Below are positions 10,484-63,877 of a stretch of 64,000 nucleotides of DNA, in pieces; the stretch's first letter is position 1, and every line of letters begins with the position of its first letter. A program made the position numbers and the translations under genes. Below the pieces are notes generated by a model. It made no database searches and had not been told where the DNA came from. It saw only the letters and a program-made list of their open reading frames with translations. Origin of the DNA: a virus; the IMG/VR virus record IMGVR_UViG_3300018475_000123. One strand, 5' to 3'.

Positions 10484-10969
10484 TTATGTAGAGACCTTGT
10501 TTGCGTTAAGTTCAACGGCTGCATACCATACACGCAGTAAAGACTCTATATCGAGGAAAGAAATTGCAGAAGTTGCAAGGAGGTTTGCCTCCGTTACACG
10601 CTTCATATCCGCATCGGATAGCTTGGTGATAAATCTGCCGATTCGCTCTTTTGACATACGCTCCGGGTTTTCGCACAGAACTACGCTGTCCATACGAAGT
10701 CCGGTTTCTTCGGCTCGAAGCAGAACATGAGTGGGCTGACCCATTTTCTTGACAGAGCCGCTGATGGGCAACGCAATGATGTTTGGGCTGTGAGCGTTGC
10801 CAACATTATTCTGGAATACAAGCCCCGGTCTTAGTCCGGTCTGTTCACTTCCACACCCATCAAATCGCATCAAGTAAATCTCGCCGATCTGGGGAACTCT
10901 ACTTACATTCTGCTGACTCAAGCGCATCCTCCTCTCAATATAAATATGTTGATATTGGGAGTATAACAC
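10484..10969 (-). CDS. MazF/PemK/Kid-family endoribonuclease toxin
   Basis: GEIYLMRFDG.GSEQTGLRPGLVFQNNVGNAHSPNIIALPISGSVKK..PTHVLL...DSVVLCENPERMSKERI is collinear with the MazF/PemK consensus (GEIw.vdfdP..GsEq.g.RPalVvs.d.fN.....vivaPiTs....P..V.l......DSvvl.dQirtvdk.Rl). Confidence 0.7.
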   Translation of the reverse strand: MLYSQYQHIYIERRMRLSQQNVSRVPQIGEIYLMRFDGCGSEQTGLRPGLVFQNNVGNAHSPNIIALPISGSVKKMGQPTHVLLRAEETGLRMDSVVLCENPERMSKERIGRFITKLSDADMKRVTEANLLATSAISFLDIESLLRVWYAAVELNANKVST

Positions 10970-27825: not shown

Positions 27826-28689
27826 TTACAACCAGCGCTCTACAAACTCTCTGTCTTGTGTGAAGATGGGGATTTCTCTGTCGATGACCCAACGACGCCG
27901 GGTAACATTGACAATCTCGTCATTATTTCTGGGATTCGGCTTTGGTGCCGTCTCCGTAACACGATAGCAACAGGAGCCACGCTTGCAGTCTGTGGGGTAG
28001 TCGTTCCAGTTGACACCCTTTTCAGACCACAGCATTTCCTGGATCATGTTGCAAGTCTTTTCGTGGAGCTGTTTGGCGCTGAAATACGCTTGTCCAGCAG
28101 CTTCGATGCTGTTGCGGGTCGCATCTTGCTGACGCCAAATCAGGCAGTTGCAAACTTCATCTTTGGGGATGGAGAAAACCCGTGCATCAAACATGGCCGA
28201 CCAGAACTTGCGCTTGAGCTTGTCGTGGTAAACCATCCTCGCTGCACAAACACGAGCCATATCTTCTTGGGCGACACCCATAAGCTCGGTTACATCATTG
28301 AGATAACCATCGACCTCTTCCGTAAAGAAGCGGTTAAACGCAACCGTCGCCATGGATGCCGCAACGCTGGTCATTTTCTGAACATTGTAGCCGAACCAAG
28401 CATCGGTGGTGATGGTCGCATAGTCGGTGAGAACCAGTGTGATTTCATCGGACTGGGTATAGCCAAACACACAGCCCTGGATGTTCTTACACAGGAACTG
28501 CATGGTACGCTGCATGGTTGTCATCATGACCTTGTCAAAGGGTTTCTTCATGCCCTTTGTGAATGTATGAAACGCTTTGCCGTCAAGGCGAATGATGACA
28601 GGGACTCGACGGGTCAGATAAGTACGAGGTACATACTCGTAATTTTGCTTCATGCGGTCGCCGAGGGAGTCAGCTTTCTTTTTACCCAT
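27826..28689 (-). CDS. tRNA(His) guanylyltransferase Thg1-like protein
   Basis: YEYVPRTYLTRRVPVIIRLDGKAFHTFTKGMKKPFD...GCVFGYTQSDEITLVL is collinear with the Thg1 N-terminal catalytic region (RiDG..FH.Fs...kP.D...........GeSDE). Confidence 0.7.
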   Translation of the reverse strand: MGKKKADSLGDRMKQNYEYVPRTYLTRRVPVIIRLDGKAFHTFTKGMKKPFDKVMMTTMQRTMQFLCKNIQGCVFGYTQSDEITLVLTDYATITTDAWFGYNVQKMTSVAASMATVAFNRFFTEEVDGYLNDVTELMGVAQEDMARVCAARMVYHDKLKRKFWSAMFDARVFSIPKDEVCNCLIWRQQDATRNSIEAAGQAYFSAKQLHEKTCNMIQEMLWSEKGVNWNDYPTDCKRGSCCYRVTETAPKPNPRNNDEIVNVTRRRWVIDREIPIFTQDREFVERWL

Positions 28690-30088
28690 TGCCCATGACC
28701 TCCTGATATTTTTCTTTTACCAAATACGAAACCAGAGCCACACGCTCATTGGGAAGTTCGCCGTTAATTACTTTCTCAAGAACCTCATTCAACACAACGC
28801 CGACGGCCTTGCCTTCAGAGAGGTACAGGAGATTCATCACATCGTGACCGTCAATCGCAAGGTCTTTGAGCTTAAAGCACTGGTTGTTCTTGATGACCTC
28901 TTCCAGAATGACTCCGAGCGCTGCGCACCGTTCGATTCTGGATTCTTGTGTGTCTTTGGCGTGAGCTTGAATGTCGGCCATACGGATGTTCAGCAAGCGG
29001 ACGAACTGTTTTTCACCGATCTTGTTGAGCCATCTGCGAACCGTCTTTGGAGTAGGCTCAATAATAGCATCGTGGTGCAAAACAAGCTCCAAAATGTCCG
29101 ATTTGGATTTATTATCAAACCGGAGTTTGGTAAGCACTTTTTCGGAAATATCATGGCTAAAAACGCCATGACCGTAGAAATGGCCGCCCTTTTCATCTTC
29201 TGTGTAGCAGTGGGGCTTGCCAATATCATGCAGGAGCAGTGACATCTTAACTACGATATCGTCGCCGTCATAGTTGGAAACCGCATGGGCGATATGCTCG
29301 TAGACATTGTACTCGTGGAATCGGTTGTTCTGATCGAAACCGACACACGGCTGCATTTCCGGGATGATGGTGGTAATTACATCGTTGTACTCCAGAAGTA
29401 CATTGAGGACACCCTTGCCGCAGAGCATCTTGCACAGCTCAGACTGGATGCGCTCAGCGGCGATGTTTTTAAGAAGCTCTTTATTCCGGTGGATGGACTG
29501 AGATGTTTTCTCTTCGATAGTAAACCCATAAGTTGAAGCAAACCGCATAGCTCTTAGGATACGAAGTGCATCTTCGTTAAACCTGTCGTCCGGGTTTCCA
29601 ACACAGCGTATCACACCGTTTTTCAAGTCTTCACGACCGTGAAACGGGTCTACCAAACCGGCCTGATTAAAGGCCATTGCATTGATGGTGAAGTCCCTGC
29701 GAGACAAATCCTTATAAATGCTGTCGGTAAACTCCACACTGTCAGGATGTCGGTTGTCCGAGTAATCTCCGTCGATACGAAATGTGGTGACCTCAAACTT
29801 TCCAGACCGCTCCATGTCTACCGTAATCGTGCCGTGTTTCAGGCCGGTGTCGATGGTTCGCACACTGCAGCGAGCGAAGTATTCCTTCATTTCCTCCGGC
29901 GTTGCCGAAGTGCAGATATCCCAATCCTTGGGTTCCAAACCCAACAGGCTGTCACGAACACAACCACCGACCACATATGCTTCATGGTGTGCATACCGAA
30001 GACCCTGCACGATGACCTTAGCACCACGAGGAATTGTGATCTTACACATCGATTGCCCTCCTGTTAATTGACACGATGAACTCCTCAA
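28682..30088 (-). CDS. cca: CCA-adding tRNA nucleotidyltransferase with C-terminal HD domain
   Basis: Pol-beta head GGCVRDSLLG..KDWDI, RRDFTINAMAF and HD LLLHDIGKP. The likely true start is MCKITIPRG at about 30049. Confidence 0.8.
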   Translation of the reverse strand: MRSSSCQLTGGQSMCKITIPRGAKVIVQGLRYAHHEAYVVGGCVRDSLLGLEPKDWDICTSATPEEMKEYFARCSVRTIDTGLKHGTITVDMERSGKFEVTTFRIDGDYSDNRHPDSVEFTDSIYKDLSRRDFTINAMAFNQAGLVDPFHGREDLKNGVIRCVGNPDDRFNEDALRILRAMRFASTYGFTIEEKTSQSIHRNKELLKNIAAERIQSELCKMLCGKGVLNVLLEYNDVITTIIPEMQPCVGFDQNNRFHEYNVYEHIAHAVSNYDGDDIVVKMSLLLHDIGKPHCYTEDEKGGHFYGHGVFSHDISEKVLTKLRFDNKSKSDILELVLHHDAIIEPTPKTVRRWLNKIGEKQFVRLLNIRMADIQAHAKDTQESRIERCAALGVILEEVIKNNQCFKLKDLAIDGHDVMNLLYLSEGKAVGVVLNEVLEKVINGELPNERVALVSYLVKEKYQEVMGNG

Positions 30089-31073
30089 CCTTTTTCATGT
30101 CGGGAGCAACGGGAAGAGAGGTGTTGTTTTTGGCGTAGGCCAAGCGTTTCTCGTATTCAGAAACCATTTCAAAGAACTCCGGTTTGTAAGTTCCGTCTTC
30201 GTTCTGATACTTACCATTCCGAATTTCCAGAAGCATCTCTCTGTCGCTTTCTCTGTATGTCCTGATTTCTTCCTTTTCCAGAATATCAAGGCACATCAGA
30301 TACAGGCGGATCAGGTGCATGGCGTGCTTGTTGAGATGGTTGTCGTCTTTCTTGTGGTTCCGATGATTCAGCTTTTCATAGTTGCCAATCACATTTGACA
30401 AGGTGTTCATCATAATGCTGAACTCTCTTGCCGGATATTTGTCGAGGTGGATGTTGCAGTAAACCTCACGGTCGAGGTCATCTCGTGGACTTTCGTCCGT
30501 AAACAAAGTGATGCCGCCGTTATCGAACACAGTGTATCTGTCACCAAAAGCCTTGAGCGCACGCTCCATGGCCTTTCGGATGTGTTCTTCATTGTCTGCC
30601 TGGGACATCCTATCTCTGGCGAGAGCATTTTCCAGACGGCGAAGCTGTTGTGTTGCGTATCCACCAAATGAGTTGACTGCTTTCTGAGAAAGAAAGAGAT
30701 GCCGATTATCGATCATCTCCTGACCAGCCTCAGACACGAAGAAGTAGTGTTCGGGCTTACAGCCGAGCAGCTCAATCGTGTTAGGATTGCAGTTGAGCAG
30801 GAGACTTACCAACTTGTTGAAGCCGTAAATCGTTGTATCGGTCTGGGTGTTTACTACCTGCTCGAAATTGGAAAGGCCAAGCAGATCGCTTTTGCTGTTC
30901 ATGGCACAACCACGGACATCTACATCAGAAGTCTCAATGTTTGTACCGTATGCGTAGCTGCCACCAAGCGTCAGGAACATGATGCGCCCCGACAAATGTG
31001 GGTTTGTCCTCAGAAAATCATACGATTCTCCGCTAACCATTTCTTTGATCTGTTCGATGGTCAAGCGATCCAC
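30042..31073 (-). CDS. Pol-beta-superfamily nucleotidyltransferase of unknown specificity
   Basis: LTLGGSYAYGTNIETSDVDVRG matches the GS-x9-13-DxD NTase signature. 343 aa with a helical C-terminal half. Confidence 0.5.
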   Translation of the reverse strand: MDRLTIEQIKEMVSGESYDFLRTNPHLSGRIMFLTLGGSYAYGTNIETSDVDVRGCAMNSKSDLLGLSNFEQVVNTQTDTTIYGFNKLVSLLLNCNPNTIELLGCKPEHYFFVSEAGQEMIDNRHLFLSQKAVNSFGGYATQQLRRLENALARDRMSQADNEEHIRKAMERALKAFGDRYTVFDNGGITLFTDESPRDDLDREVYCNIHLDKYPAREFSIMMNTLSNVIGNYEKLNHRNHKKDDNHLNKHAMHLIRLYLMCLDILEKEEIRTYRESDREMLLEIRNGKYQNEDGTYKPEFFEMVSEYEKRLAYAKNNTSLPVAPDMKKVEEFIVSINRRAIDV

Positions 31074-32424: not shown

Positions 32425-33516
32425 TTATTCGTCGTTTGCCAGCAGGAAATCGGGGTTGATGACCTTGAAACTGATGTCGGGGTCATAACTCCGCATAACC
32501 ACGCCTTCTCGCTTCTGTCCGGCGAGCAGAGTGGAAGTACCCTTGGCATACTCCACCAGGTCAGCAATGGTCTCGGGCAGAACTTTACCCTCCTCCAGAA
32601 CGGGAACCGCCTTGATGCTAAATGGATGCAGCAGTCGTGCAATTTCTCTGGTATCGCACTTGCGGTCAGGGAAAATCAGGTTAAATGCGTAGAAATCGTA
32701 GCTATTAACCCGATATTTGTTCTTTTGGATGCCGGGGCCGATGATTTCTCCCTGCAAAACGATGCGGTCATGGTCACCAATGAGCTGCATCAGCACAGAC
32801 TTAATGTCGTACTTGGCAGCGATTGACCAGTAAGAACTGTTGTCGGGCTTACCCAAACGAATGTTTCGGGAGCATACGCCGAACTCATATTTCTTACGAC
32901 CGACTTTTTCCAGGAAGTATGTAGCGGACTGACCGTCGATCTTCTCCGTAACCATGAAACGAGTACCGTTCTTTTTCTCGTTCTCGAACATGGTAGTCTT
33001 GTTCTGGATGCGTTCCTCGTCAGTCTTGACGATCCATGCAGGGAAGCCTTTCTTCTTGGGCTTCGGGCCGAAACACTTACGGAACCAACGGAACCTCATC
33101 ATGAACTGGAACAGCTTGCCGTACTGTTTCACACGGCTGTCATCTGCACAGGCCAGAAGCTGACGCTCCTGCTCAGCCTGCGGGTCATATTTCTTGATGC
33201 CCAGGATTTCCGTTACATCCATATCCAGCGCATAGGTGCCGGGAGGAAGGATGCTCATGGGGAGAACCAGACCCTGGGAGACCTGTTTGCGGAGCTTGAT
33301 GGTACGAACACGGAACTTTCTATCCCGCAGGAACTCAAACTCTGGTCGGTCAGGCACGATGGAATCCACTTCGATGTAGACAATGTGCTGGCCAACTGCA
33401 AATTCGCCTTTCTGGACAACGCACTCCCAGCCATCAACCTGTGCAACCTCGATCCGGTCTGCACCAGGGATGGGGCGAATATCTGAGATAGTGCGGATGG
33501 TTGCTAACCTTCGCAT
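32425..33516 (-). CDS. ATP-dependent RNA ligase (DraRnl/Rnl5-like: N-terminal OB-like domain plus nucleotidyltransferase)
   Basis: KxDG motif I in TEKIDGQSATYF, with downstream motifs (GEIIGPGIQ, EGVVMR). N-terminal RIEVAQVDGWECVVQKGEFAVGQHIVYIEVDS resembles the DraRnl N-domain. Confidence 0.6.
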   Translation of the reverse strand: MRRLATIRTISDIRPIPGADRIEVAQVDGWECVVQKGEFAVGQHIVYIEVDSIVPDRPEFEFLRDRKFRVRTIKLRKQVSQGLVLPMSILPPGTYALDMDVTEILGIKKYDPQAEQERQLLACADDSRVKQYGKLFQFMMRFRWFRKCFGPKPKKKGFPAWIVKTDEERIQNKTTMFENEKKNGTRFMVTEKIDGQSATYFLEKVGRKKYEFGVCSRNIRLGKPDNSSYWSIAAKYDIKSVLMQLIGDHDRIVLQGEIIGPGIQKNKYRVNSYDFYAFNLIFPDRKCDTREIARLLHPFSIKAVPVLEEGKVLPETIADLVEYAKGTSTLLAGQKREGVVMRSYDPDISFKVINPDFLLANDE

Positions 33517-37992: not shown

Positions 37993-38733
37993 TTAAGGCT
38001 GGCTGCCGTATGCGGGCATAGGTTTCAGTTTGTGCAGATTCTTTCTGTGAAGACCCTCGATCAAACGCTCGTGTCTCTCAATGGCACAACATCCATCCAT
38101 GATGTATCTGTCGATTTCCTGATAGCTGACGCCGAGATTGTCCTCGTCTGTCTTGCCGCACAGGCCATCGGAAGGAACCTTATCAACCAGGTCTCTGGGA
38201 ATGGGAAGCTCATGGCCGATTTCCAAAACCTCATGAACCATCAGATTGGAAAGTGGGCTGAAGTCACCAACACTGTCACCAAACTTTGTGGAATACCCTA
38301 CAAAGTCTTCGGAGCGGTTACAAGTATTGGCAACACGACCGCCCTCCGGCAGGGACTGAGCCACTGCATACAGAGTGGTCATGCGGATGCGGGGAGGAAT
38401 GTTGACAACCGTCTGCTCGCTTACCTGCATAATACCGCTCAGCTCTTCCATCAGAGCAAAGACGGTGCTTTCAATGTTGACCACTTTGTAGTTGATACCG
38501 AGAGCTTCAACGAGGCGATGGCTATCATGAATATCAGACTGTTCACCGTTCGGCATCAGAACACCCACAACACGATCCTTGCCAAGCGCTTCGACACACA
38601 GAGCAGCCACAACACTTGAGTCTTTGCCGCCGGAGATACCGACAACAGCAGAGCAGTTCGGCCCGTTTTCGGCAAAGTAGTCTCTGATCCACTGAACGAT
38701 TTCATCTTTCGTTCTCTTAGGGTTTGCAAGCAT
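37993..38733 (-). CDS. nadE: NH3-dependent NAD+ synthetase NadE
   Basis: PP-loop VVGISGGKDSSVVAAL; NadE-like length and layout. Confidence 0.8.
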   Translation of the reverse strand: MLANPKRTKDEIVQWIRDYFAENGPNCSAVVGISGGKDSSVVAALCVEALGKDRVVGVLMPNGEQSDIHDSHRLVEALGINYKVVNIESTVFALMEELSGIMQVSEQTVVNIPPRIRMTTLYAVAQSLPEGGRVANTCNRSEDFVGYSTKFGDSVGDFSPLSNLMVHEVLEIGHELPIPRDLVDKVPSDGLCGKTDEDNLGVSYQEIDRYIMDGCCAIERHERLIEGLHRKNLHKLKPMPAYGSQP

Positions 38734-38744
38734 AGCGACCCTCC

Positions 38745-40232
38745 TTAGAAATTGCCGTTGTGCAGATTATTTCTCACATCTGCCAGAGTGTACTTGGTAA
38801 CAAACTCGCCATCTTCAAAGACGGGGACAAGTTCATTGTTATCCTGTGCCTGTGCCCATGTCAGACCGTCTTCATAAGCATAGCCGTCAGCGGTCTTATA
38901 CACACGGCAGCAACCACGCTGAGATTTCTTGAAATGACCGGAATCGGTCTTGGGGTTCTTGAAAATCATAATGGGAGCGCCGTTTGCATCCTCAGCATAG
39001 GTGGCCTTGACGGCGATGCCGAATGTGTCACGGGTATAGGGGTTGTACTCTGTTCGGAAGTCTGCAATGGTTTCCAGACACTGCATAGAGAACGAACCAA
39101 CGCCCAAAGAAACATTGTTAATTGCAAACCCATTCCGCTCCAGGCGCTTATAGATTTCTTCGCATCTCTGTGGCGTAATGCTGTCGCCGTAGATGGCTTT
39201 CACATGAGGATTCAGCACCTTAAATCCCTTGCTGTTGACAGTGCCACCGAAGATGTCCCACAGCTTAAACACGGTCTGTGTTACAACCTCAACAGGGTTG
39301 CCACTGTCGCCACGGATGGAGATAAATCCATCGTGCGCAAGGATTTCGTCCTTGAGCTGAGGAAGAATGTTATCCACCAGATTCCAGTAGTCGTAACTGT
39401 CGCTCACCATTGAGAAACTTTGGTGAGGATAGACCTCAGTCAGCAGGCGACGAACATGGGTGATTTCGTCTCCGTCGATGGCAAAGTTGGAACACATAAC
39501 GCTGTGCTCAGTGGACAGGGCGCCAAAAGCAACCGGCTCTGTGGAACTGTCACACAGGTAGTTGTCCTCCAACCAAAGGATGGCGGGAACAGTTGCCGTA
39601 TTCAGAAAACTGAGGCAGAAAGCGGCAGAACTCTTGGTTGCACTCTCAACACTCTCCTGGCCACGCATAGAAAAATCGCCAAGGAGTCTTGCACGGGGCA
39701 CGCTGTCATCACAGGTGCGATCAGCAAACTCATTGACGATCTGACGATAACGATAACCGACTTCTGCGGAAACCTGCGTGTGCCACATGGTACAGGACAG
39801 CATGGTTTCAATGGAATTAACCAACCACACAAAGTCGGGATGTGTGTTGGAGATTTCGATCTGTGGAACCTTAATATCAGAGCGGGTTCCTTCGGGGAGT
39901 GCTCTGATTTTCAGAGGCAGATAACCGAGATTGTAGAGTTTCTCGATGCGCTCCTCGCCAACACCGTTCGTGCCGATAGTGGCGTTGAGCACACGCTTGT
40001 ACTCTTCCAGAACCTTGGGATAGGGCTTGTCAAAGAAGTTCTCATTGAACGCATCGATGAGATACTCCTGAATGAACGCCTGCAGACCAAAGAGAGTGAT
40101 CTTCCCAGTGTCCTGGAGTCTGGACATTCTGGGCGTATAGTAGGAGACCATTTTGGTCAGTCCCTTGGGGTACTGATCTGCGTGGGCGGTCTTGTAAAAA
40201 TCCAGACACAGCAGAGGATTGTAATGTATCAT
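38745..40232 (-). CDS. nicotinamide phosphoribosyltransferase family (NadV/NAMPT or its NARP1 paralog Namat)
   Basis: 495 aa. N-terminal LLCLDFYKTAHADQYP matches the NAMPT family start (LL.tDsYK..H..qYP). The length fits NAMPT rather than PncB. Confidence 0.7.
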   Translation of the reverse strand: MIHYNPLLCLDFYKTAHADQYPKGLTKMVSYYTPRMSRLQDTGKITLFGLQAFIQEYLIDAFNENFFDKPYPKVLEEYKRVLNATIGTNGVGEERIEKLYNLGYLPLKIRALPEGTRSDIKVPQIEISNTHPDFVWLVNSIETMLSCTMWHTQVSAEVGYRYRQIVNEFADRTCDDSVPRARLLGDFSMRGQESVESATKSSAAFCLSFLNTATVPAILWLEDNYLCDSSTEPVAFGALSTEHSVMCSNFAIDGDEITHVRRLLTEVYPHQSFSMVSDSYDYWNLVDNILPQLKDEILAHDGFISIRGDSGNPVEVVTQTVFKLWDIFGGTVNSKGFKVLNPHVKAIYGDSITPQRCEEIYKRLERNGFAINNVSLGVGSFSMQCLETIADFRTEYNPYTRDTFGIAVKATYAEDANGAPIMIFKNPKTDSGHFKKSQRGCCRVYKTADGYAYEDGLTWAQAQDNNELVPVFEDGEFVTKYTLADVRNNLHNGNF

Positions 40233-40459
40233 TTCTTCTTACCCTCTTTCAAATTTTTAGGAATGCCATATTTTGCAAAGTACAGGGCAAAGGCAAATGG
40301 TGCGGCAACAGGCCATAAAACTCCCATAACCACGCAATATCCAGCCTTGTCATGCCAACCTCTGCCATAGTCGCTGTCAGCGAAAATATACAGATAGTAC
40401 AATGCAAATGTAACAAATGCACCAACGCAAATGTATAAAAGCATCAGCAGAAAAATCAC
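40229..40459 (-). CDS. small membrane protein
   Basis: 76 aa, two TM helices. Confidence 0.3.
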   Translation of the reverse strand: MIFLLMLLYICVGAFVTFALYYLYIFADSDYGRGWHDKAGYCVVMGVLWPVAAPFAFALYFAKYGIPKNLKEGKKK

Positions 40460-41661
40460 TCTTCGTCACCTGCCTTAAAGTTGTAGATAGGCTTGATGAC
40501 TGCTTCGATTGTGACTGTAGGCTCGATGTTGTCAACAATATCGGACATATTCTTATATGCCATCGGACACTCGTCAAGCGTGCTCCTACCAACAGAAGTG
40601 GTGTAGATACCGTCCATCTGTTTCTTGAACTCGGACACAGTAAAGGTCTGCTTTGCCGCACTGCGGCTCATCAGACGACCAGCACCATGAGGAGCTGAAC
40701 AGTTCCAGTCTTCGTTGCCCTTACCAACGCAAATCAGACTGCCATCTCTCATGTTAATGGGGATCAACAGCTTTTCACCTGCCTGCGCAGAAACTGCACC
40801 CTTGCGGAGGATCATGTTATCCACATCGATGTAGTTGTGAATGGTGGTGAACTGCTCAACAACATGGAAGCCCATCTCTTTTACGATGGTGTCCATCATA
40901 GCCTGACGATTGAGGTTTGCAAACCGTTGAGCAATACGCATATCATGCAGATACTGCTCAAAAAGCTCGCCCTCCACATATGCAAGAGGCTTCGGAATAG
41001 GCGAATGCTTGGACTTCAACTGCTTGAGAACGCTCTGAATCTCTTTCTGACGGCCAGCAGCTTTCAACTCCTCGACCTTTGCATCAATTTCCTCTTTGCT
41101 GTACGAGGTTAATGCTTTGTATGCTGCTTCCTGATAGAAGTTAGCAATTTCAAGGCCGAGATGACGGCTGCCGGAGTGAACTACGATGTATATGTTTCCA
41201 GCATCGTCTTGGTTTGCCTCAATGAAATGGTTACCACCGCCGAGCGTGCCAATGCTGCTGTATGCACGGTCGATGTTTACCTTTTTGGCGCAGCAAAGCT
41301 CTGACAGGTCGATATCCTTGGCAAATCGGTGTTCCTTTTTACGAATCTCAAACCCGGATGGAATACCAGCACGAATTACCTTGTCCAACTTCTGCGGCTC
41401 GATATGCGCTTCCTTGATGCGGATCGTTTCCATTCCGCATCCGATGTCCACGCCAACGAGGTTGGGGCAAATCTTATCCTTGATTGTCATAGTGGTGCCA
41501 ATGGTGCATCCTGCTCCGGCGTGAATGTCCGGCATCATACGAACTCGGCTGCCCTCAATATAGGGCTGGTTCAAAAGGTTAATTACCTGCGAAATCGACT
41601 CGTTGTCAACCACATCGGTAAACACCTTGGCAGTTGCGTATTTGCCCTGCAACTCAATCAT
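40456..41661 (-). CDS. rtcB: RtcB RNA 3'-phosphate/5'-OH ligase
   Basis: MPDIHAGAGCTIGTT, GGGNHFIE, HSGSRHLG and C-terminal HGAGR motifs. Confidence 0.85.
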   Translation of the reverse strand: MIELQGKYATAKVFTDVVDNESISQVINLLNQPYIEGSRVRMMPDIHAGAGCTIGTTMTIKDKICPNLVGVDIGCGMETIRIKEAHIEPQKLDKVIRAGIPSGFEIRKKEHRFAKDIDLSELCCAKKVNIDRAYSSIGTLGGGNHFIEANQDDAGNIYIVVHSGSRHLGLEIANFYQEAAYKALTSYSKEEIDAKVEELKAAGRQKEIQSVLKQLKSKHSPIPKPLAYVEGELFEQYLHDMRIAQRFANLNRQAMMDTIVKEMGFHVVEQFTTIHNYIDVDNMILRKGAVSAQAGEKLLIPINMRDGSLICVGKGNEDWNCSAPHGAGRLMSRSAAKQTFTVSEFKKQMDGIYTTSVGRSTLDECPMAYKNMSDIVDNIEPTVTIEAVIKPIYNFKAGDEE

Positions 41662-41681: not shown

Positions 41682-42485
41682 TTACTGAATGACGGACACC
41701 TTCTCGTGCTCGCCACGGAAAATGCTTTCGGATGTGAACACATGGGTAATCAACCCATCTGTCAGAACTGAACCATCACGAATGGTATTTTCGCAATGGG
41801 TAACATAGAGGAAAATGTTTTCCGCACCAGCCTCTTTCAAAGCCTTTGCGGTGTGGGTAAATGTGCCACCACGGGAACAGATATCATCAACGATAAGGAC
41901 GGTTCTGCCCTCGACTTTATCCGCACCAACCAGTTCGAGCTTCTGGATTTTGCCAGTACGCCAATCTCTGTGCTTGATGCCGAACACATAGTCGCCCTGG
42001 ATTTGGGAAGAGTACCGCTTCGATGCACCCTCATCGGGATAACAAAGCAGAATGTCCTGCTTACCAAAGGTTTCCCGGATATTCTTCATTACAAACTCTT
42101 CCACGCATCTGGTTACACCAATCGACTGGAAGCGGTTAATCAGAGCTTCAGACACACTGGAGTGAGGGTCATACGCCGTAACCGAGTCAAACCCCAGTGC
42201 GTTGATGAAGTCGGCAAACCACTTGAGCGTAAACACTTCGTCGCCACTTTTCACCCTATCCATTCTGGCATTGGGGATATAGGGCATAATGAGGTTGATT
42301 TCCACGGAACGGTCTCTGTTTGAACGAATGTGGTTGGTAAGGTGCCAGACGAGAATACATTCGTGGTCACCATCATACAACCACTTAATATCATAGGTCA
42401 TTGCCTTACCAGTGTCAAACCGGAATGAGGTTGTACCGTCGGGAAAAGAGGTAAAACTGACTTCCTTTCCGTTCACGAAAATCAT
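41682..42485 (-). CDS. ribose-phosphate pyrophosphokinase homolog (Prs-like or Adps-like)
   Basis: PRPP-binding loop RTVLIVDDICSRGGTFTHTAKALKEAGA. N-terminal Prs-like domain. Confidence 0.7.
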   Translation of the reverse strand: MIFVNGKEVSFTSFPDGTTSFRFDTGKAMTYDIKWLYDGDHECILVWHLTNHIRSNRDRSVEINLIMPYIPNARMDRVKSGDEVFTLKWFADFINALGFDSVTAYDPHSSVSEALINRFQSIGVTRCVEEFVMKNIRETFGKQDILLCYPDEGASKRYSSQIQGDYVFGIKHRDWRTGKIQKLELVGADKVEGRTVLIVDDICSRGGTFTHTAKALKEAGAENIFLYVTHCENTIRDGSVLTDGLITHVFTSESIFRGEHEKVSVIQ

Positions 42486-42486
42486 A

Positions 42487-43041
42487 TTACGCCTCCCAGT
42501 TCTCGATGTTGATCTGGCACATCTTCATGGCAGCCAGCGCATTTGCATGGCTCTCAGGAGTGACTCCAGCACAGCAGGCCGCATCAACAGACAGCTTGAC
42601 TTCGGGCAGGAACGCCTTGATGAGCATGGCGTTGGAAATGACGCAGATGTCAGTACACAGACCGACGAGCGTGATCTCTTCGATTGGATTTTTCTTGTTC
42701 ATCTGAGCCAGCCAATCGGCAAGCTCGATGGAGCCAAAAGTGCCTTTCAGGAACACCTCGGCATCTTTGCCCTCCTTGGTGACCTTGGCATCGATAGCCT
42801 CATACACATCCTTGTGCAGTTCCCAGCCATCACTCAGATGACTGCAGTGGACAACGGGAAGCAGGCGACCTTCCTGAGTGTTGAGGTAATCCTCATAATG
42901 CGTATCATGCGTTACCGCATAAACGCCATCGAAGTTGTTGATTTTCTGGACAACATTGGGAACGATCTCCTGCGCTTCCTTAGAACCAAGAGCGCCAGAG
43001 ATGAAGTCACCCTGCATATCCACGACTACGAGAACCTTCAT
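42487..43041 (-). CDS. isochorismatase-family cysteine hydrolase (nicotinamidase PncA-like)
   Basis: KVLVVVDMQGDF and catalytic GLCTDICV motifs. ATG at 43041; the track start is a GTG. Confidence 0.7.
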   Translation of the reverse strand: MKVLVVVDMQGDFISGALGSKEAQEIVPNVVQKINNFDGVYAVTHDTHYEDYLNTQEGRLLPVVHCSHLSDGWELHKDVYEAIDAKVTKEGKDAEVFLKGTFGSIELADWLAQMNKKNPIEEITLVGLCTDICVISNAMLIKAFLPEVKLSVDAACCAGVTPESHANALAAMKMCQINIENWEA

Positions 43042-43190
43042 TCTTCGCACCTTCCTTTATTGATGTCGTCTTTATTTCGTTTGCGATTATACGCTTTCTT
43101 ATTCGGAACAATCTGAGTAACGGGGCGAGCGCACGACCAGAAATTCCTGGACTTTTTCGCTTTCTGCTTTTTCTCATTCTTTTCTGTCAT
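43038..43190 (-). CDS. 50-aa Lys/Arg-rich small protein, translationally coupled to the PncA-like gene (ATGA overlap)
   Basis: Strong RBS ggaggtg 6 nt upstream of the ATG at 43190. Below the 60-aa cut-off of the ORF track. Confidence 0.35.
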   Translation of the reverse strand: MTEKNEKKQKAKKSRNFWSCARPVTQIVPNKKAYNRKRNKDDINKGRCEE

Positions 43191-44041: not shown

Positions 44042-44132
44042 TGGCTGGGGTAGCAGGACTTGAACCTGCGGTCGAGGGTAAACCTCTTGTCGGAGTCAAA
44101 GTCCGATGCCTTACCAACTTGGCGATACCCCA
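44042..44132 (-). tRNA. class II tRNA (long variable arm) with encoded CCA; the hand-folded anticodon reads UUG
   Basis: Acceptor TGGGGTA/TACCCCA, D-arm GCC-AAGTTGGTAA-GGC, anticodon arm TCGGA-CTTTGAC-TCCGA, stem-loop variable arm, T-arm GCAGG-TTCAAGT-CCTGC, 3' GCCA. Confidence 0.6.
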
Positions 44133-44768: not shown

Positions 44769-45443
44769 TCAAATCGGCACCACTTTATTAAAGAGAGCAA
44801 CGAACTGCTCATTTACCTGCTTGTCAACATGGTAATGGCCGAAATACCACCTCTTGAACTTAAGCTCTGAATAGATACGCTCAAGAAAGCTCACGACCGG
44901 ATCGTTTTCATACCATGGTGAGAGAAGCATTTGAACACTTCGAGGCGCACAGTGAGTGATGGCATAGTCAACCTTCCAATTTACCGCATCGAGACTGGAT
45001 ATGGCATACTCCATCTCTTCTCTGGATGGGATTTCTTCTTTCCACCAGGAAATATGCTCAATGCGATGCTCTTTGTCGATTGACCTTGCACCACCCATGA
45101 CAAATATCTTCTTTCTGTCGATTGTCAAAACCTGACCTCTTTCCAGATGATAAATGTCCGGTGCAATCTCTCGCACATAGCCGCCGAACTTCTTTTTCAG
45201 TGGCATACAACGGAGGATATCGAAGTTTTCATGGTTGCCATCAACGAAAAGCGTTACGAAATTCTTGTTTGATAGCCAATCTTGCCAGTATATCTCTCTG
45301 GCAGAGCCGTCCCACACAAGGCCAAAGTCACCACAAATAATGAGGTAGTCTTTTTTCGTTAGCTCTTTTTGTTGTGGAAAGTTCGTAGTGTTCAGTTTAC
45401 TTATGTCGATATTGGCATGGGTATCGCCAGTGACATAAATCAT
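44769..45443 (-). CDS. metallophosphoesterase (lambda-PP-like Ser/Thr phosphatase fold)
   Basis: GDTHAN, ICGDFG and GNHENF motifs. Confidence 0.65.
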   Translation of the reverse strand: MIYVTGDTHANIDISKLNTTNFPQQKELTKKDYLIICGDFGLVWDGSAREIYWQDWLSNKNFVTLFVDGNHENFDILRCMPLKKKFGGYVREIAPDIYHLERGQVLTIDRKKIFVMGGARSIDKEHRIEHISWWKEEIPSREEMEYAISSLDAVNWKVDYAITHCAPRSVQMLLSPWYENDPVVSFLERIYSELKFKRWYFGHYHVDKQVNEQFVALFNKVVPI

Positions 45444-45842: not shown

Positions 45843-46979
45843 TTATCGCAAATCTTCTCGGATATCCCGCAGAACATCTGCGCCCATTTTTTCGTTGATA
45901 TGTTTGATGATGCCGTCGATGGCATCCTTTTCTACCATGCGGTAGTAGTTGTAGTAGCCGTCCAGAACCTGAACATCATGCTTATCCCAAGAGACGCCAT
46001 TTCTGCGATCCAGAATGTAGCTGTGCAGCATACTCTGGAACTGGCGCTTTCTCTTGTGGCCGACAGTGATTTCGTTGTCCTTGTTCAGCATCACTCCGAG
46101 ATTCCAATTCCGTCCTGCGGAGGAACCATATCTCGTCTTGGCACTGTTAATAGTGAATGGCGCATTGAACTCGGCCAAAACATCCACAACGGCCTTTTCA
46201 ATCGCCCTCACATCAAAGGTGTACTTTGAGGAGATGATAAAATCGTCGGCATATCTTGTGTATGTATAGCTCTGCTTTTCAAAATCCCTAAACTTATTTG
46301 CCAACTTATAATCAATAGGAATCATCATAACATTGGTGATAAGCGGAGAAATCGGGGTTCCCTGCGGGAGACCACCATTCAGAAAAGCCAGTTCAAGAGC
46401 AGTTCTCAGTTCGCTTTTACCGATCTCGTACTTGACGATTTCACTGAACGGAAAAATCATACTGAACTGTTGCATGACAAAGTCAATGGTTGTACTTCCA
46501 AAGAAGTTGGACAGGTCATACTTACCAAACCACTTGCTGTCATTTTTCTGGTGACGCTTTACTGCATCGATTGTGCTTCTACCTTTCACATATGCAAACG
46601 CAGAAGTGTGATAAAGCGTGTGGAAATACTCTTCAAAGATGGTTTTCAGCCTTCGGAGTGCATCCATCAGTTCCGGCTGTGGGGCATCAATTCGGCGCAA
46701 GCCACCGCTTTTCTTAGGAATATAGAAAGTGGTGTAAATATCTTCACGCTTTTTCTCACGAAGCGTAGCTGTGCTCTCATTGAAACGAACCAGATGCTGA
46801 ATCAGCTCGGTTACATCAATGCTGTCCTTAAAACGATTGCTGATATGATCGAACTCATAGGTTCTTGTGTTGCCAATATTACGATTGACGACCGGACTGT
46901 CTTCATAAGACTTAAACAAAAATTCCTCCAGTGTCATCTGGTGATACATGGGGGATTGCATGACTGTGATGTAAACCAA
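45843..46979 (-). CDS. reverse transcriptase, stand-alone (retron-, DGR- or defence-RT-like; no maturase, endonuclease or other fused domain)
   Basis: RT motifs FAYVKGRSTIDAV (motif 2), GLPQGTPISPLITNVMM (motif 4) and YTRYADDFIIS (motif 5, YADD). Thumb-like INSAKT...ITVGHKRKR is similar to the retron Ec86 thumb. Confidence 0.75.
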   Translation of the reverse strand: MVYITVMQSPMYHQMTLEEFLFKSYEDSPVVNRNIGNTRTYEFDHISNRFKDSIDVTELIQHLVRFNESTATLREKKREDIYTTFYIPKKSGGLRRIDAPQPELMDALRRLKTIFEEYFHTLYHTSAFAYVKGRSTIDAVKRHQKNDSKWFGKYDLSNFFGSTTIDFVMQQFSMIFPFSEIVKYEIGKSELRTALELAFLNGGLPQGTPISPLITNVMMIPIDYKLANKFRDFEKQSYTYTRYADDFIISSKYTFDVRAIEKAVVDVLAEFNAPFTINSAKTRYGSSAGRNWNLGVMLNKDNEITVGHKRKRQFQSMLHSYILDRRNGVSWDKHDVQVLDGYYNYYRMVEKDAIDGIIKHINEKMGADVLRDIREDLR

Positions 46980-55455: not shown

Positions 55456-56268
55456 TTACCTCCAATTTGTTGCAATCTTACCGTCTGGATGGATGATGAT
55501 GTTGGAGTAACCATCCCGATAATCGTTGTGCTGTTGCTGCCACATATCCCCGAGTGTTACTCTGGCGTGTTTACCAGCATAGTCAAATGTCGCATAGACA
55601 AAGAAATCTCCTATGCGGAATGTGCGAACATCGATTTCAGCATCGTTCTGCAGATCATTCCAGATATCTATCGGATAGTCTTTCTGTTCAAGTCCGCTGA
55701 GAAACCGGAACGAAAAAGCATTTGCGTCCATCTTCATATAATCTTTGATGAACACCAGCGTTGGGTTCTCAACTACAGTTTGAACTGTACACCCAGGGAA
55801 GTTTCTGGGATTCGGATGTACAAATTCATTGCAAGACAGGTTTATATGTGCCAATCCATTCAGTTCTGTGCTAAAGCCAGAAGTGTTGATGGAACAAAAG
55901 ACAACATTGCTATGACTTCGGTATGTATCAACGATTTCCGCAATGTGTTCAGGATACAGCCCAGGTTCTCCGCCAGTAATCGTGAGTCTGGCATTGGGGT
56001 GCTCTTCCAAAACACGCTTTAGTGATTCGATTTGTGCAGGAAAATCATTATTCCCGGTCATTGGATGCTGCCGCTCCAAACAGAACGGGCAATGGAATGG
56101 GCACTCTTGCGTTGTGATTAGCTGCACATTGATACGGTAGTACAGAGGGCGACCAAGAGAGGTCTTTTCTTGTCTACTCTCAAGGCGATACTGCAAGTCT
56201 GCATTCATTTCAAACCTTATATCGTCATAAGAGCGAATGAATGGGATGAAGTTCATTTTGCTACTCAC
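55456..56268 (-). CDS. radical SAM enzyme
   Basis: CxxxCxxC cluster QECPFHCPFCLER and SAM-binding TITGGEP. 270 aa. Confidence 0.65.
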   Translation of the reverse strand: MSSKMNFIPFIRSYDDIRFEMNADLQYRLESRQEKTSLGRPLYYRINVQLITTQECPFHCPFCLERQHPMTGNNDFPAQIESLKRVLEEHPNARLTITGGEPGLYPEHIAEIVDTYRSHSNVVFCSINTSGFSTELNGLAHINLSCNEFVHPNPRNFPGCTVQTVVENPTLVFIKDYMKMDANAFSFRFLSGLEQKDYPIDIWNDLQNDAEIDVRTFRIGDFFVYATFDYAGKHARVTLGDMWQQQHNDYRDGYSNIIIHPDGKIATNWR

Positions 56269-56292: not shown

Positions 56293-56402
56293 TGGTGGGA
56301 AGGGATGGATTTGAACCACCGAAGTATTACTGACCACACGGCGCCCCAAGTCGAAATACAGAGATTTACAGTCCCTTGCTTTGGCCGCTTGCATACCTTC
56401 CC
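56293..56402 (-). tRNA. tRNA-Tyr (GUA)-like gene of 110 nt with an about 39-nt structured variable arm
   Basis: GGGAAGG..anticodon arm AGGGA-CTGTAAA-TCTCT, variable region GTATT...AATAC with an internal stem, GGTGG-TTCAAAT-CCATC, CCTTCCC-A-CCA. Confidence 0.55.
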
Positions 56403-56637
56403 ATATGGTTTACGGGGGTGACGGTTTACCAAACTCCACCGACAGGATGCACTTCGGAAGCGGCGGCCATGTTCTTTCGTGGATATCCCGAAAATGGCGG
56501 CGGCAAAACCCCGCGCCTGGTAGCATTCCCAGACTTGTCCGCACCACTTCGGTTTACCGGCGAACCAACGGTTTTGAGCAGCATTTCCCCGTGATCGTCG
56601 AGGTGCTTTTCTCATCCTCCATGGCTTCCCATGGAGC

Positions 56638-56713
56638 TGGTGGAGATAGTCGGGATCGAACCGGCGACCTCCTGCTTGCAAGGCAGGCGCTCTCCCATCT
56701 GAGCTATATCCCC
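56638..56713 (-). tRNA. tRNA-Ala (UGC)
   Basis: GGGGATA..GCTCAGATGGGAGAGC..CCTGC-CTTGCAA-GCAGG..GCCGG-TTCGATC-CCGAC..TATCTCC-A-CCA; G3-U70 Ala identity pair present. Confidence 0.75.
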
Positions 56714-56978: not shown

Positions 56979-57059
56979 TGGTGGGAGAAGTTGGACTCGA
57001 ACCAACATGGCTTTTAACCGGGGTGCGACCCTGCGTCTAACCAATTCCGCCATTCTCCC
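56979..57059 (-). tRNA. tRNA gene; the anticodon arm could not be resolved by hand
   Basis: Acceptor GGGAGAA/TTCTCCC, D-arm GCGG-AATTGGTTAGA-CGC, T-arm GTTGG-TTCGAGT-CCAAC, 3' ACCA. The central 26 nt do not form a canonical 5-bp stem with a 7-nt loop. Confidence 0.5.
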
Positions 57060-57532
57060 ATAGGTGGGTTGGCCGAAGCCAACCCTATATGAAACCAACA
57101 CGCTGCCATCCAGCCAAGTGGAACTCCCTGCGGCCACATATTCACCCGACAAACCAAACCCTTGGGTTTTGTAAATCATTATTCTTTAGCTGCTACATTC
57201 GCAGTCGTCTTTAGAGCCTGAGCTTTGTTCAAGTGAAAAACTTTGAACTGTGAACCTTGCTATTTGAACTTTAACCTTTGAGCCTTACAGCAAAAGACGG
57301 TTTTTCTGACCGTTGGGCGTTGCGCCCTCTTACAATTTCTGTATAGAGCCTGTCTGCCTTTTGTGGCGGCAGGCGTTGTTACAGAAAACACATTTGCAAC
57401 CCAAAGCAAAGGTTTTCATAATAGCTAATCAGGCTATTTTACATCTTCTTTTTATCTTTACTTATCTGTAGATGTTGAAACAGAGAAGGAATATGATTTA
57501 GGGTTTTCGGATGACAGCGAGGTGATTAACGA

Positions 57533-61242: not shown

Positions 61243-61312
61243 TATCCACTCTGCGTTTACACAGGCTTGTGACTGTTTATCGAAAACTCGATAAGCCGCA
61301 TTAGACAGAGTT
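61243..61312. repeat. intergenic repeat copy A (gcgtttacacRggctKg ... aagccgcattagaSa)
   Basis: About 65-bp element shared with 62107-62175. Contains the sub-motif cgaaaactcgataagcc, which recurs at 62300-62325 and 62381-62400. Confidence 0.5.
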
Positions 61313-61924: not shown

Positions 61925-62150
61925 GAGTTACAGCGATTGCGCATCTGTCACACTCGATACGCATACCACGCTCACAGCAGACCCGACAGGAATACTTAAA
62001 ACTCCGATTGGCTTCATGCTTGTTGGACGCTTCATACTGCAATTCCACGCCAACCTGCTCAAACTTAGTCACGGTAGCACCTCCAATATTCAGTTCTCTC
62101 TGCTCTGCGTTTACACGGGCTGGCAACCGTTTGGAGAACCCAAGCCGCAT
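61881..62150 (-). CDS. hypothetical Cys-rich protein
   Basis: CRVCCERGMRIECDRC. Confidence 0.25.
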   Translation of the reverse strand: MRLGFSKRLPARVNAEQRELNIGGATVTKFEQVGVELQYEASNKHEANRSFKYSCRVCCERGMRIECDRCAIAVTHAITVAALDTAKER

Positions 62151-62175
62151 TAGAGATGGCGCCCGCTATAATTTC
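62107..62175. repeat. intergenic repeat copy B
   Basis: gcgtttacacgggctgg...caagccgcattagagatgg matches copy A at both ends. Confidence 0.5.
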
Positions 62176-63287: not shown

Positions 63288-63877
63288 TTTGAAATGCCCC
63301 TTTCATAGATTTTGGGTGATGGTTTATCACTCAAGAAAGCCGCCGAAAATCCAGCCTTAGCGGGAAAGTCGGCGGCTCTATCAATGATAAACTCAACACT
63401 CGTGGGTGACACCGGCTCTGCACTTAGCCCGATGGGAACATATCTGCCCCATTCAGCCGTTGCAGTATCTAACGGTGTGCGTATCATTCCTAATACTCAC
63501 CCGTGTTGAGGAATTTGCTTTTATTCGCAATACTCAATCAAATCCGACTTTTATATCTTAATGCCCTCATTACCGGCTCCTCGGAGCACTTCACCCTTGG
63601 GTGGATAACTCGGACAATACTACTTGCCCTCATTGACCTTTCTCGTATAGTCATCAGTTCCGCAAGCCGCGTTTAGGCTCATAGACACAAACCTCCGGGG
63701 ATTTTCACTATCTCGTACCTATGGCCTAACTCCATAGCACCGGCGACGGCGGCCTTTAGCCGCAAAACTGTGATTTATAGTCCCTCAGTCGGACATTCTG
63801 TGCGGCCCGTCCGCACTCCATGGCTAAACCATGGCCGCTCACCTTTTGCGTTGGTGAGTTACGGCAAGGGGTTTTCA

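Follow-up and report, generated by a model that had tools for sequence, protein, structure and literature searches.

A tRNA-Tyr(GUA) gene with an enlarged variable region

The stretch analyzed here, hereafter called the window, comprises 64,000 nucleotides of viral DNA (IMG/VR record IMGVR_UViG_3300018475_000123) and carries on its minus strand, at positions 56293 to 56402, a gene for tRNA-Tyr with the anticodon GUA. The gene is 110 nucleotides long, including an encoded CCA end, and 39 of these nucleotides form the variable region. These coordinates and this count, proposed by an initial annotation made from the sequence alone, proved correct when compared with the sequence and with Rfam family RF00005. 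The RF00005 match, at 34.4 bits, exceeded the gathering score of 29, and its alignment, which covered 56296 to 56402 (minus strand) and model positions 1 to 71, placed an insertion of approximately 37 nucleotides in the variable region and deleted position 26. A covariance model made in this analysis, R1, gave the gene 133.6 bits. ARAGORN, which the initial annotation had recommended as a check, called 12 tRNAs in the window at default settings, and this gene was not among them; with introns allowed it returned conflicting calls of Ile, Pro and Tyr, and an anticodon-loop intron was rejected. ARAGORN-based inventories of phage tRNAs can thus overlook genes of this kind. When ARAGORN and Rfam results were combined, the window held 13 tRNA genes, of which this is the sole tRNA-Tyr.

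The RNA reads GGGAAGG-UA-UGC-AAGCGGCCAAA-GCA-AGGGA-CUGUAAA-UCUCU-GUAUUUCGACUUGGGGCGCCGUGUGGUCAGUAAUACUUC-GGUGG-UUCAAAU-CCAUC-CCUUCCC-A-CCA, in which GUAUUUCGACUUGGGGCGCCGUGUGGUCAGUAAUACUUC is the 39-nucleotide variable region (all coordinates in this paragraph are on the minus strand). The 5' strand of the acceptor stem, GGGAAGG (56396 to 56402), pairs with CCUUCCC (56297 to 56303), followed by the discriminator A73 (56296) and CCA (56293 to 56295). The D arm (56377 to 56393) consists of a 3-bp stem, UGC/GCA, and the 11-nucleotide loop AAGCGGCCAAA. The anticodon arm, AGGGA-CUGUAAA-UCUCU (56360 to 56376), contains U33, A37 and the anticodon GUA at 56367 to 56369, and the T arm, GGUGG-UUCAAAU-CCAUC, occupies 56304 to 56320 in the Rfam alignment. 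The description of these arms and the CCA end as canonical stands insofar as every arm is aligned by Rfam and CCA is encoded, but it overlooked the missing nucleotide 26; the conserved apical module of the variable arm and the family to which the gene belongs, both described below, had escaped notice as well. The published Tyr identity set used for comparison (PMC4275181) is present in the window gene as the GUA anticodon, A73, G1-C72 and a long variable arm. One homologue, L062, has A1-U72 in place of G1-C72. The gene departs from a canonical tRNA core in the absence of nucleotide 26, in a variable region that measures 39 to 40 nucleotides across the homologues, and in not being detected by ARAGORN. 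Class-II tRNA-Tyr molecules usually have a variable region of about 13 to 21 nucleotides.

The variable region (56321 to 56359, minus strand) is organized as helix P1, a 2x2 internal loop, helix P2, a UGU bulge, helix P3 and a UUC linker. In P1, tRNA positions 44 to 47 pair with 76 to 79, and the internal loop follows. P2 comprises the pair 50-73 and the pairing of 51 to 54 with 68 to 71 (GACU/GGUC), with A72 bulged. On the 3' side, the three-nucleotide bulge U65-G66-U67 separates P2 from P3, in which positions 55 to 57 pair with 62 to 64 and close a tetraloop at 58 to 61. The 3' linker UUC is the same as in Escherichia coli tRNA-Tyr. Both stems that had been proposed within the insert, GUAUU/AAUAC and GAC/GUC, are present, and the estimate that the arm is three times the normal length also holds, with 39 nucleotides compared with 13 to 14 in E. 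coli tRNA-Tyr. The window arm is longer than that of any reference bacterial tRNA-Tyr, the set with which it was compared.

Conservation and covariation of the variable arm

Homologues were retrieved from ENA/Logan contigs by means of the adjoining radical SAM protein, and the loci were labeled L followed by a number. The identical 110-nucleotide tRNA was present in 13 independent contigs. In nine of these (L031 to L039) the radical SAM protein was identical too; in the other four (L045 to L048) that protein was 93% identical, and the adjoining gene differed at 11 to 25 positions per 110 nucleotides. A further locus, L044, with a 94% identical radical SAM protein and both flanks diverged by 10 to 20%, had a single substitution in the tRNA, at window position 56328. 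The tRNA thus accumulated 0 to 1 changes over its 110 nucleotides, compared with 10 to 25 per 110 nucleotides in the adjoining gene and approximately 13% in the flanks overall. For the 39-nucleotide insert itself, approximately five changes were expected per lineage, and zero and one were observed. These data indicate that the gene is no assembly accident and is under selection.

More divergent homologues, L075 and L062, were found by scanning viral contigs for GUA anticodon loops unusually distant from the T loop, and L049, L050 and L051 were found by a motif search of the retrieved loci. Alignment A2 contains six distinct sequences from three lineages (the window type; L049, L050, L051 and L075; and L062). 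When RNAalifold was applied to A2 with no structure supplied, it returned a cloverleaf plus a long variable arm. Of the 29 pairs, 13 had changed on both sides, whereas shuffled alignments gave 5.5 +/- 1.6 and none of 500 reached 13; 98.9% of cells were paired, compared with about 87% in shuffles. In a control in which the 3' partners were slid by one to three columns, at most three two-sided pairs were obtained. The changes were distributed over the acceptor stem (5 of 7 pairs), the D stem (2 of 3; pair 10-26 as UA/GC and pair 11-25 as GC/AU), the anticodon stem (1 of 5; pair 27-43 as A-U/G-C) and the T stem (2 of 5; alignment-column pairs 85-99 and 86-98), with no broken cells. Since pair 10-26 of the D stem covaries, no lineage has a free nucleotide 26 between the D and anticodon stems, and this nucleotide is absent in every one. 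The anticodon loop CUGUAAA was unchanged throughout.

The variable arm contributed three of the two-sided changes, 45-79 (UA/CG), 46-77 (AU/UA) and 50-73 (CG/UA/GC), and its helix was 96% paired by pair counting over the six sequences. The compensatory pairs support a helix formed by the extra sequence. In alignment A2, the apical module GACUUGGGGCGCCGUGUGGUCA (tRNA positions 51 to 73; 56330 to 56352, minus strand) was nearly invariant: its approximately 22 nucleotides (GACUUGG...CCGUGUGGUC, including the UGU bulge) were constant across lineages while five of the seven acceptor pairs had changed. The exceptions were positions 59 to 62, which cover the tetraloop and the closing pair 57-62 and vary, and position 73, which covaries with 50. 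Taken together, these results show, with high confidence, that the locus holds a real, structured gene of the tRNA family.

The module was sought elsewhere. No second copy was found in the window at up to three mismatches, and in 2.9 million viral contigs the motif occurred only inside tRNA-Tyr genes of the present family. A relaxed scan of the viral contigs returned 85 loci, of which only L062 and L075 lay in a tRNA context. Because the motif is confined to tRNA-Tyr genes, it is a tRNA-specific module and not a repeat; a mobile or repeated element was rejected on the grounds that the window has no other copy and that only L062 and L075 among the relaxed-scan loci had a tRNA context. R1, run over 421 kilobases of loci, recovered the five known copies at 116 to 137 bits, with the next best match at 59 bits. 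A metagenome scan for relatives returned ordinary tRNA-Tyr genes only, the deposited phage genomes contained no homologue with the insert and no close relative of the phage, and further radical SAM neighborhoods (P0008, P0011, P0013 and P0014) yielded no additional copies.

These observations bear directly on the idea that the locus is a decaying tRNA gene in which a neutral stretch of DNA, a mobile mini-element or a DNA-level palindrome became inserted. Such an origin would account for the ACUU repeats that flank a 26-nucleotide segment, the removal of which leaves a 13-nucleotide, E. coli-like variable region, and for the palindromic center, GGCGCC or GUGCAC, seen in two lineages. However, conservation of the insert equals that of the tRNA body where about five changes were expected, the insert contains compensatory pairs, and the motif has no second copy in the window and none outside tRNA-Tyr genes in the 2.9 million viral contigs. 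The palindrome is broken in L049 and L051 (GGGGCC), and its positions are better read as an apical loop. This explanation is largely refuted, and we regard it as very improbable. A kissing-loop dimer through the same hexamer was rejected for similar reasons: GGCGCC and GUGCAC are palindromic, but GGGGCC in L049 and L051 is not, and the four variable bases suit an apical tetraloop closed by P3. Two further interactions were rejected, one between the D loop and the loop of the variable arm and one, resembling that of T-box RNAs, between UGGU and the 3' ACCA; covariation accompanies neither, and the bases in question are already occupied in P2.

A further alternative follows from the suggestion, made in the initial annotation, of a small intron-like insertion. 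Here an endonuclease would excise the apical part of the arm and RtcB or an RNA ligase would rejoin the ends, leaving a class-II arm of approximately 22 nucleotides, and the tip would be the cleavage signal. The invariant 4-bp helix GACU/GGUC, flanked by the invariant UGU bulge and an inner helix, does form half of a bulge-helix-bulge, positions 46 to 73 of L075 and L062 accommodate a strict 2-3-4-3-2 motif, and the marked conservation of the tip's sequence would be in keeping with a signal. However, the strict motif fails in the window sequence, in which A46 and G73 do not pair with each other, and covariation prefers the pair 50-73 (three of three lineages) over 46-73 (two of three). By covariation, the opposite side of the 4-bp helix is a 2x2 loop plus a one-nucleotide bulge and not a second three-nucleotide bulge, and chance yields minimal strict motifs once or twice per sequence. 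The insert also lies at a position other than the canonical 37/38 site, and no Rfam intron family was found in scans of the window or the locus. A group I or group II self-splicing intron was rejected, with 39 nucleotides of insert compared with more than 200 for such introns and no Rfam intron match in the window or locus. The enzymes that excision would involve are considered below with the gene content.

Genomic setting and related tRNA-like genes

The tRNA-Tyr gene stands immediately upstream of a radical SAM gene (55456 to 56268, minus strand; Pfam PF04055), the Shine-Dalgarno sequence of which begins 10 nucleotides after the CCA. As no terminator lies between them, the two are probably cotranscribed. 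In L049 to L051, the tRNA-Tyr gene is instead 18 nucleotides downstream of the same radical SAM gene. A functional link between the two genes was rejected, since they are adjacent in two lineages, are not so in L062 and L075, and the radical SAM gene occurs widely in the absence of the tRNA. In related phages, the slot upstream of the radical SAM gene is filled by tRNA-Ala, a 141-nucleotide tRNA-like gene, RAGATH-36 (directly upstream of the gene) or small open reading frames. In the 141-nucleotide gene, at L017 3838 to 3978 (plus strand), the acceptor, D and T arms and the CCA end are normal, but approximately 70 additional nucleotides separate the D arm from the T arm.

This setting raises the possibility that the molecule is a nontranslational, tRNA-like RNA serving as a nuclease decoy or sponge, as a scaffold for the hairpin, or as punctuation for RNase P and RNase Z that defines where the radical SAM mRNA begins. 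The position 10 nucleotides before the Shine-Dalgarno sequence, the occupation of the same slot by tRNA-Ala, the 141-nucleotide gene or RAGATH-36, the missing nucleotide 26, and other aberrant tRNA-like genes in the same phage group are all consistent with it, as is the neutralization of PtuAB toxicity by overexpressed tRNA-Tyr (PMC12673091). Against it, the anticodon loop CUGUAAA is fully canonical and the same in every lineage; the gene has retained A73, CCA and a class-II D loop of the same sequence as in E. coli tRNA-Tyr, which mere punctuation would not need; and the adjacency to radical SAM is absent in L062 and L075. On balance, we consider a nontranslational role unlikely.

Directly upstream of tRNA-Tyr lies tRNA-Ala(UGC) (56638 to 56713, minus strand), and the Ala-Tyr order is kept in L075. 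The spacer between them (56403 to 56637, minus strand) is GC-rich and gave only a weak Rfam match, to RT-6 at 56598 to 56638. In L045 to L048, about 100 nucleotides covering the tRNA-Tyr 5' end together with the sequence just upstream (window 56390 to 56499) showed one change per 110 nucleotides, a conservation nearly as high as that of the tRNA, and this spacer may be another structured RNA. All genes of the window are on the minus strand, and the tRNA array extends from 44 to 61.5 kilobases. RAGATH-4, RAGATH-16 and, as a weak match, RAGATH-27 (63381 to 63518, 63693 to 63763 and 57439 to 57521) are interleaved with the array, as are two twister-P1-like ribozymes (61243 to 61307 and 62097 to 62156, minus strand), which scored 62.9 and 51.4 bits, below the Rfam threshold of 67.2. 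A reverse transcriptase gene (RVT_1, 45843 to 46979, minus strand), found also at L166 1 to 307, adjoins the array.

The window also codes for DnaE, DnaB, primase and an ERF recombinase, and beyond its 3' end (L169 1 to 9200) lie a YonO-type single-subunit RNA polymerase (PF05183), YonJ, YonV and an integrase. The latter genes, together with contig sizes of 126 to 138 kilobases, point to an SPbeta-like, temperate phage of approximately 126 kilobases, the host of which, presumably a gut bacterium, probably belongs to the Bacillota. Several minus-strand genes identified by Pfam are assigned to tRNA repair and maturation, namely, a Thg1-like gene (27826 to 28689), a CCA-adding enzyme (28682 to 30088), RlaP (30042 to 31073), an RNA ligase (32425 to 33516) and the RNA ligase RtcB (40456 to 41661; PF01139, E = 1.6e-66), and their predicted functions make this set the toolkit of a phage whose tRNAs are attacked. 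A metallophosphoesterase gene at 44769 to 45443 (minus strand) can be counted with them. NAD-salvage genes are present on the same strand, with NAMPT at 38745 to 40232, NadE at 37993 to 38733, a PRPP synthetase at 41682 to 42485 and an isochorismatase-family gene at 42487 to 43050. A MazF/PemK-like endoribonuclease toxin is encoded at 10484 to 10969 (minus strand), and its cleavage products would be RtcB substrates.

Excision of the apical arm would find some backing in enzymes encoded in the window, namely, RtcB, another RNA ligase and a MazF-like endoribonuclease. However, a phage RtcB is equally well accounted for by tRNA repair, and the scan of 64 window open reading frames found no tRNA_int_endo (EndA family) domain. 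Neither an EndA nor a tyrosyl-tRNA synthetase (TyrRS) gene was found among the window open reading frames or in the 10 kilobases beyond the window's 3' end. The intron-like insertion, for which no strict bulge-helix-bulge in the window sequence, no Rfam intron family in the window or locus and no splicing endonuclease in the 64 open reading frames was found, thus has little in its favor, and we judge excision of the arm quite unlikely; if it did occur, the arm would be a novel type of tRNA intron in bacteria or phages.

Other unusual tRNA-like genes were encountered. A second family of tRNA-Tyr(GUA)-like genes, 91 to 98 nucleotides long and likewise missed by ARAGORN, occurs in large viral contigs (L025 to L030, L053 to L057, L060, L061, L065 to L069, L071 to L074 and L078; for example, L028 2431 to 2527 and L053 1505 to 1601, both on the minus strand). 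Its members have no D arm, only the 8-nucleotide linker UAACNNCA. The anticodon arm is followed by a 5-bp stem, a loop of approximately 23 nucleotides, a segment of which complements the linker, and then AUUGG. The complements read ACACC/GGUGU, ACGGC/GUCGU and ACGUC/GGCGU, with the two sides covarying, and the linker and the loop of the variable arm appear to pair up as the D arm. In the viral contig L024 (10485 to 10587, plus strand), a tRNA-Tyr gene has a tandemly duplicated variable hairpin (UCCCUCCGGG twice) and a 29-nucleotide variable region; it is another independent enlargement of the variable arm. Within the window, tRNA-Gln(UUG) (44042 to 44132, minus strand) has a class-II-like variable arm of 16 nucleotides, GAGG-UUUA-CCUC, where Gln tRNAs normally have a variable loop of 4 to 5 nucleotides. 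An 81-nucleotide tRNA-like gene at 56979 to 57059 (minus strand), called Ala(CGC) by ARAGORN, has an anticodon arm shrunk to GGGU-CGC-ACCC. Its homologues of 90 nucleotides (L002 2919 to 3008, L007 3054 to 3143, L008 3057 to 3146 and L166 1698 to 1788) have A33 in place of U33, and their anticodons are GUU, GCU or GUA between otherwise near-identical phages. These homologues stayed below the Rfam threshold.

Predicted role of the arm and relation to known systems

The two options put forward by the initial annotation were an expanded variable arm that alters recognition and an intron-like insertion. Because the anticodon arm needs no splicing to be whole and shows covariation, because the arm helix contains three compensatory pairs, and because the arm is conserved like the tRNA body, the expanded arm fits the evidence best of the two; the altered recognition is what we infer from it. 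Our preferred interpretation, held with middling confidence, is that the gene encodes a functional phage tRNA-Tyr whose remodeled variable arm is kept in the mature RNA and changes how the molecule is recognized. All the elements that TyrRS and the ribosome need are kept, namely, the 7-bp acceptor stem, G1-C72, A73, CCA, the anticodon GUA flanked by U33 and A37, the class-II D arm and the T arm. The variable arm would have been enlarged from approximately 13 nucleotides to a 39-nucleotide rod with three helical segments and a conserved bulged tip. The tRNA would decode Tyr codons during infection with the arm retained, and retention and charging are, from these sequence features, reasonably probable.

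Such a tRNA-Tyr would be a poor substrate of, or a competitor for, host factors that read the normal tRNA-Tyr variable arm, the clearest of which would be defense nucleases of the Septu/retron-Eco7 PtuAB type that cut there. Retron-Eco7 and Septu PtuAB cut E. coli tRNA-Tyr in the variable loop at U47/C48-A49 (PMC12673091, PMC13096335). The tRNA-Tyr of the T5-like phage SP15, with a variable loop five nucleotides longer, is not cut, and protection is lost when it is given the E. coli loop (PMC12673091, PMC13096335, PMC11555353). Nuclease evasion is, by analogy, a tentative candidate for the selective reason. The bacterial TyrRS C-terminal domain also binds the variable arm (PMC4275181). The invariant tip is most simply taken as a surface that a protein partner would recognize or as a means of preventing recognition. 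A more speculative form of this idea is that the conserved bulged hairpin of the tip is a naturally occurring "aptamer tag" carried by a functioning tRNA, a tag that might recruit a dedicated phage factor or might sterically block or titrate host nucleases acting on the variable loop. A recruited synthetase, modification enzyme or repair enzyme would then create a private phage tRNA-Tyr channel.

Several observations weigh against the interpretation of a functional, remodeled tRNA-Tyr. Loss of nucleotide 26 and the length of the arm could impair use by the ribosome or EF-Tu. In its favor, engineered tRNAs that carry a grafted hairpin at the tip of the variable arm stay active in translation, but very large hairpins work poorly, and V-Spinach tRNAs are only marginally active (PMC7590224). 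A tip this strongly conserved in sequence would be compatible with a processing signal too. With three lineages only, the covariation rests on few independent events. The fold of the insert, at -7.9 kcal/mol, was equaled by 42% of shuffles, and the folding of the whole 110-nucleotide RNA gave z = -0.99; thermodynamics alone is no proof of a structured insert, and it is the comparative evidence that takes the structure beyond chance. In addition, two scans of bacterial genome contigs returned no match for the tRNA and no prophage copy.

If the interpretation is correct, its consequences would depend on which of its parts hold. Work published in 2024 to 2026 established that Septu and retron-Eco7 stop phages by cleaving the tRNA-Tyr variable loop and that T5-like phages escape by means of a slightly longer loop. 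If evasion is indeed the reason, the present gene would mark the extreme end of a tRNA-Tyr arms race, its 39 nucleotides lying well beyond the reported 13 to 16 (PMC4275181) and beyond the length that ARAGORN accepts. If the tRNA is charged and used, it would set a new upper bound for what TyrRS, EF-Tu and the ribosome tolerate, and tagged or orthogonal tRNAs could be designed on a natural model. If the tip does act as a tag, then, together with the other tRNA-Tyr-like genes missed by ARAGORN, it would mean that phages systematically rebuild tRNA-Tyr architecture and not loops alone, as a response to defenses directed at this tRNA.

Full-text literature searches found no description of a tRNA-Tyr variable arm of such size. 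The functionally closest known system is, by analogy, the tRNA-Tyr of T5-like phages. Like the window gene, the T5 and SP15 genes are phage-encoded, carry GUA and have a variable loop longer than that of reference bacterial tRNA-Tyr; there, the longer loop confers resistance to, or inhibition of, a variable-loop nuclease (PMC12673091, PMC11555353, PMC13096335). In contrast, the extra length is approximately 5 nucleotides there and approximately 25 here, where it is accompanied by three helical segments, a bulged tip and loss of nucleotide 26, and the host is E. coli there and probably a member of the Bacillota here. Ordinary bacterial class-II tRNA-Tyr molecules, such as the E. coli tyrT and tyrU products, share with the window gene G1-C72, A73, the loop CUGUAAA, a 3-bp D stem with the loop AGCGGCCAA, the UUC linker and an encoded CCA, but their variable region is 13 to 14 nucleotides instead of 39, and the window gene differs further in having no nucleotide 26 and no unpaired nucleotide 44 and in being missed by ARAGORN.

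Other parallels concern the arm itself. In Pezizomycotina mitochondrial tRNA-Tyr, the arm has lengthened naturally, which is thought to reflect coevolution with the TyrRS C-terminal domain (PMC4275181), and the A1-U72 pair is common to these tRNAs and L062. Their arm of 16 nucleotides, already termed "unusually long" (PMC4275181), compares with 39 to 40 here. Archaeal bulge-helix-bulge introns at noncanonical positions resemble the locus in having a short insert outside the anticodon loop, a 4-bp helix beside a three-nucleotide bulge, and RtcB nearby; they differ in that here the second bulge is without covariation, no splicing endonuclease was found, and the tRNA is of bacterial type and belongs to a phage. 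In aptamer-tagged and V-Spinach tRNAs, which otherwise function as tRNAs, the variable arm likewise ends in a structured hairpin, placed there so that proteins are recruited or blocked (PMC7590224), but these molecules are synthetic, whereas the phage tRNA-Tyr is natural and conserved.
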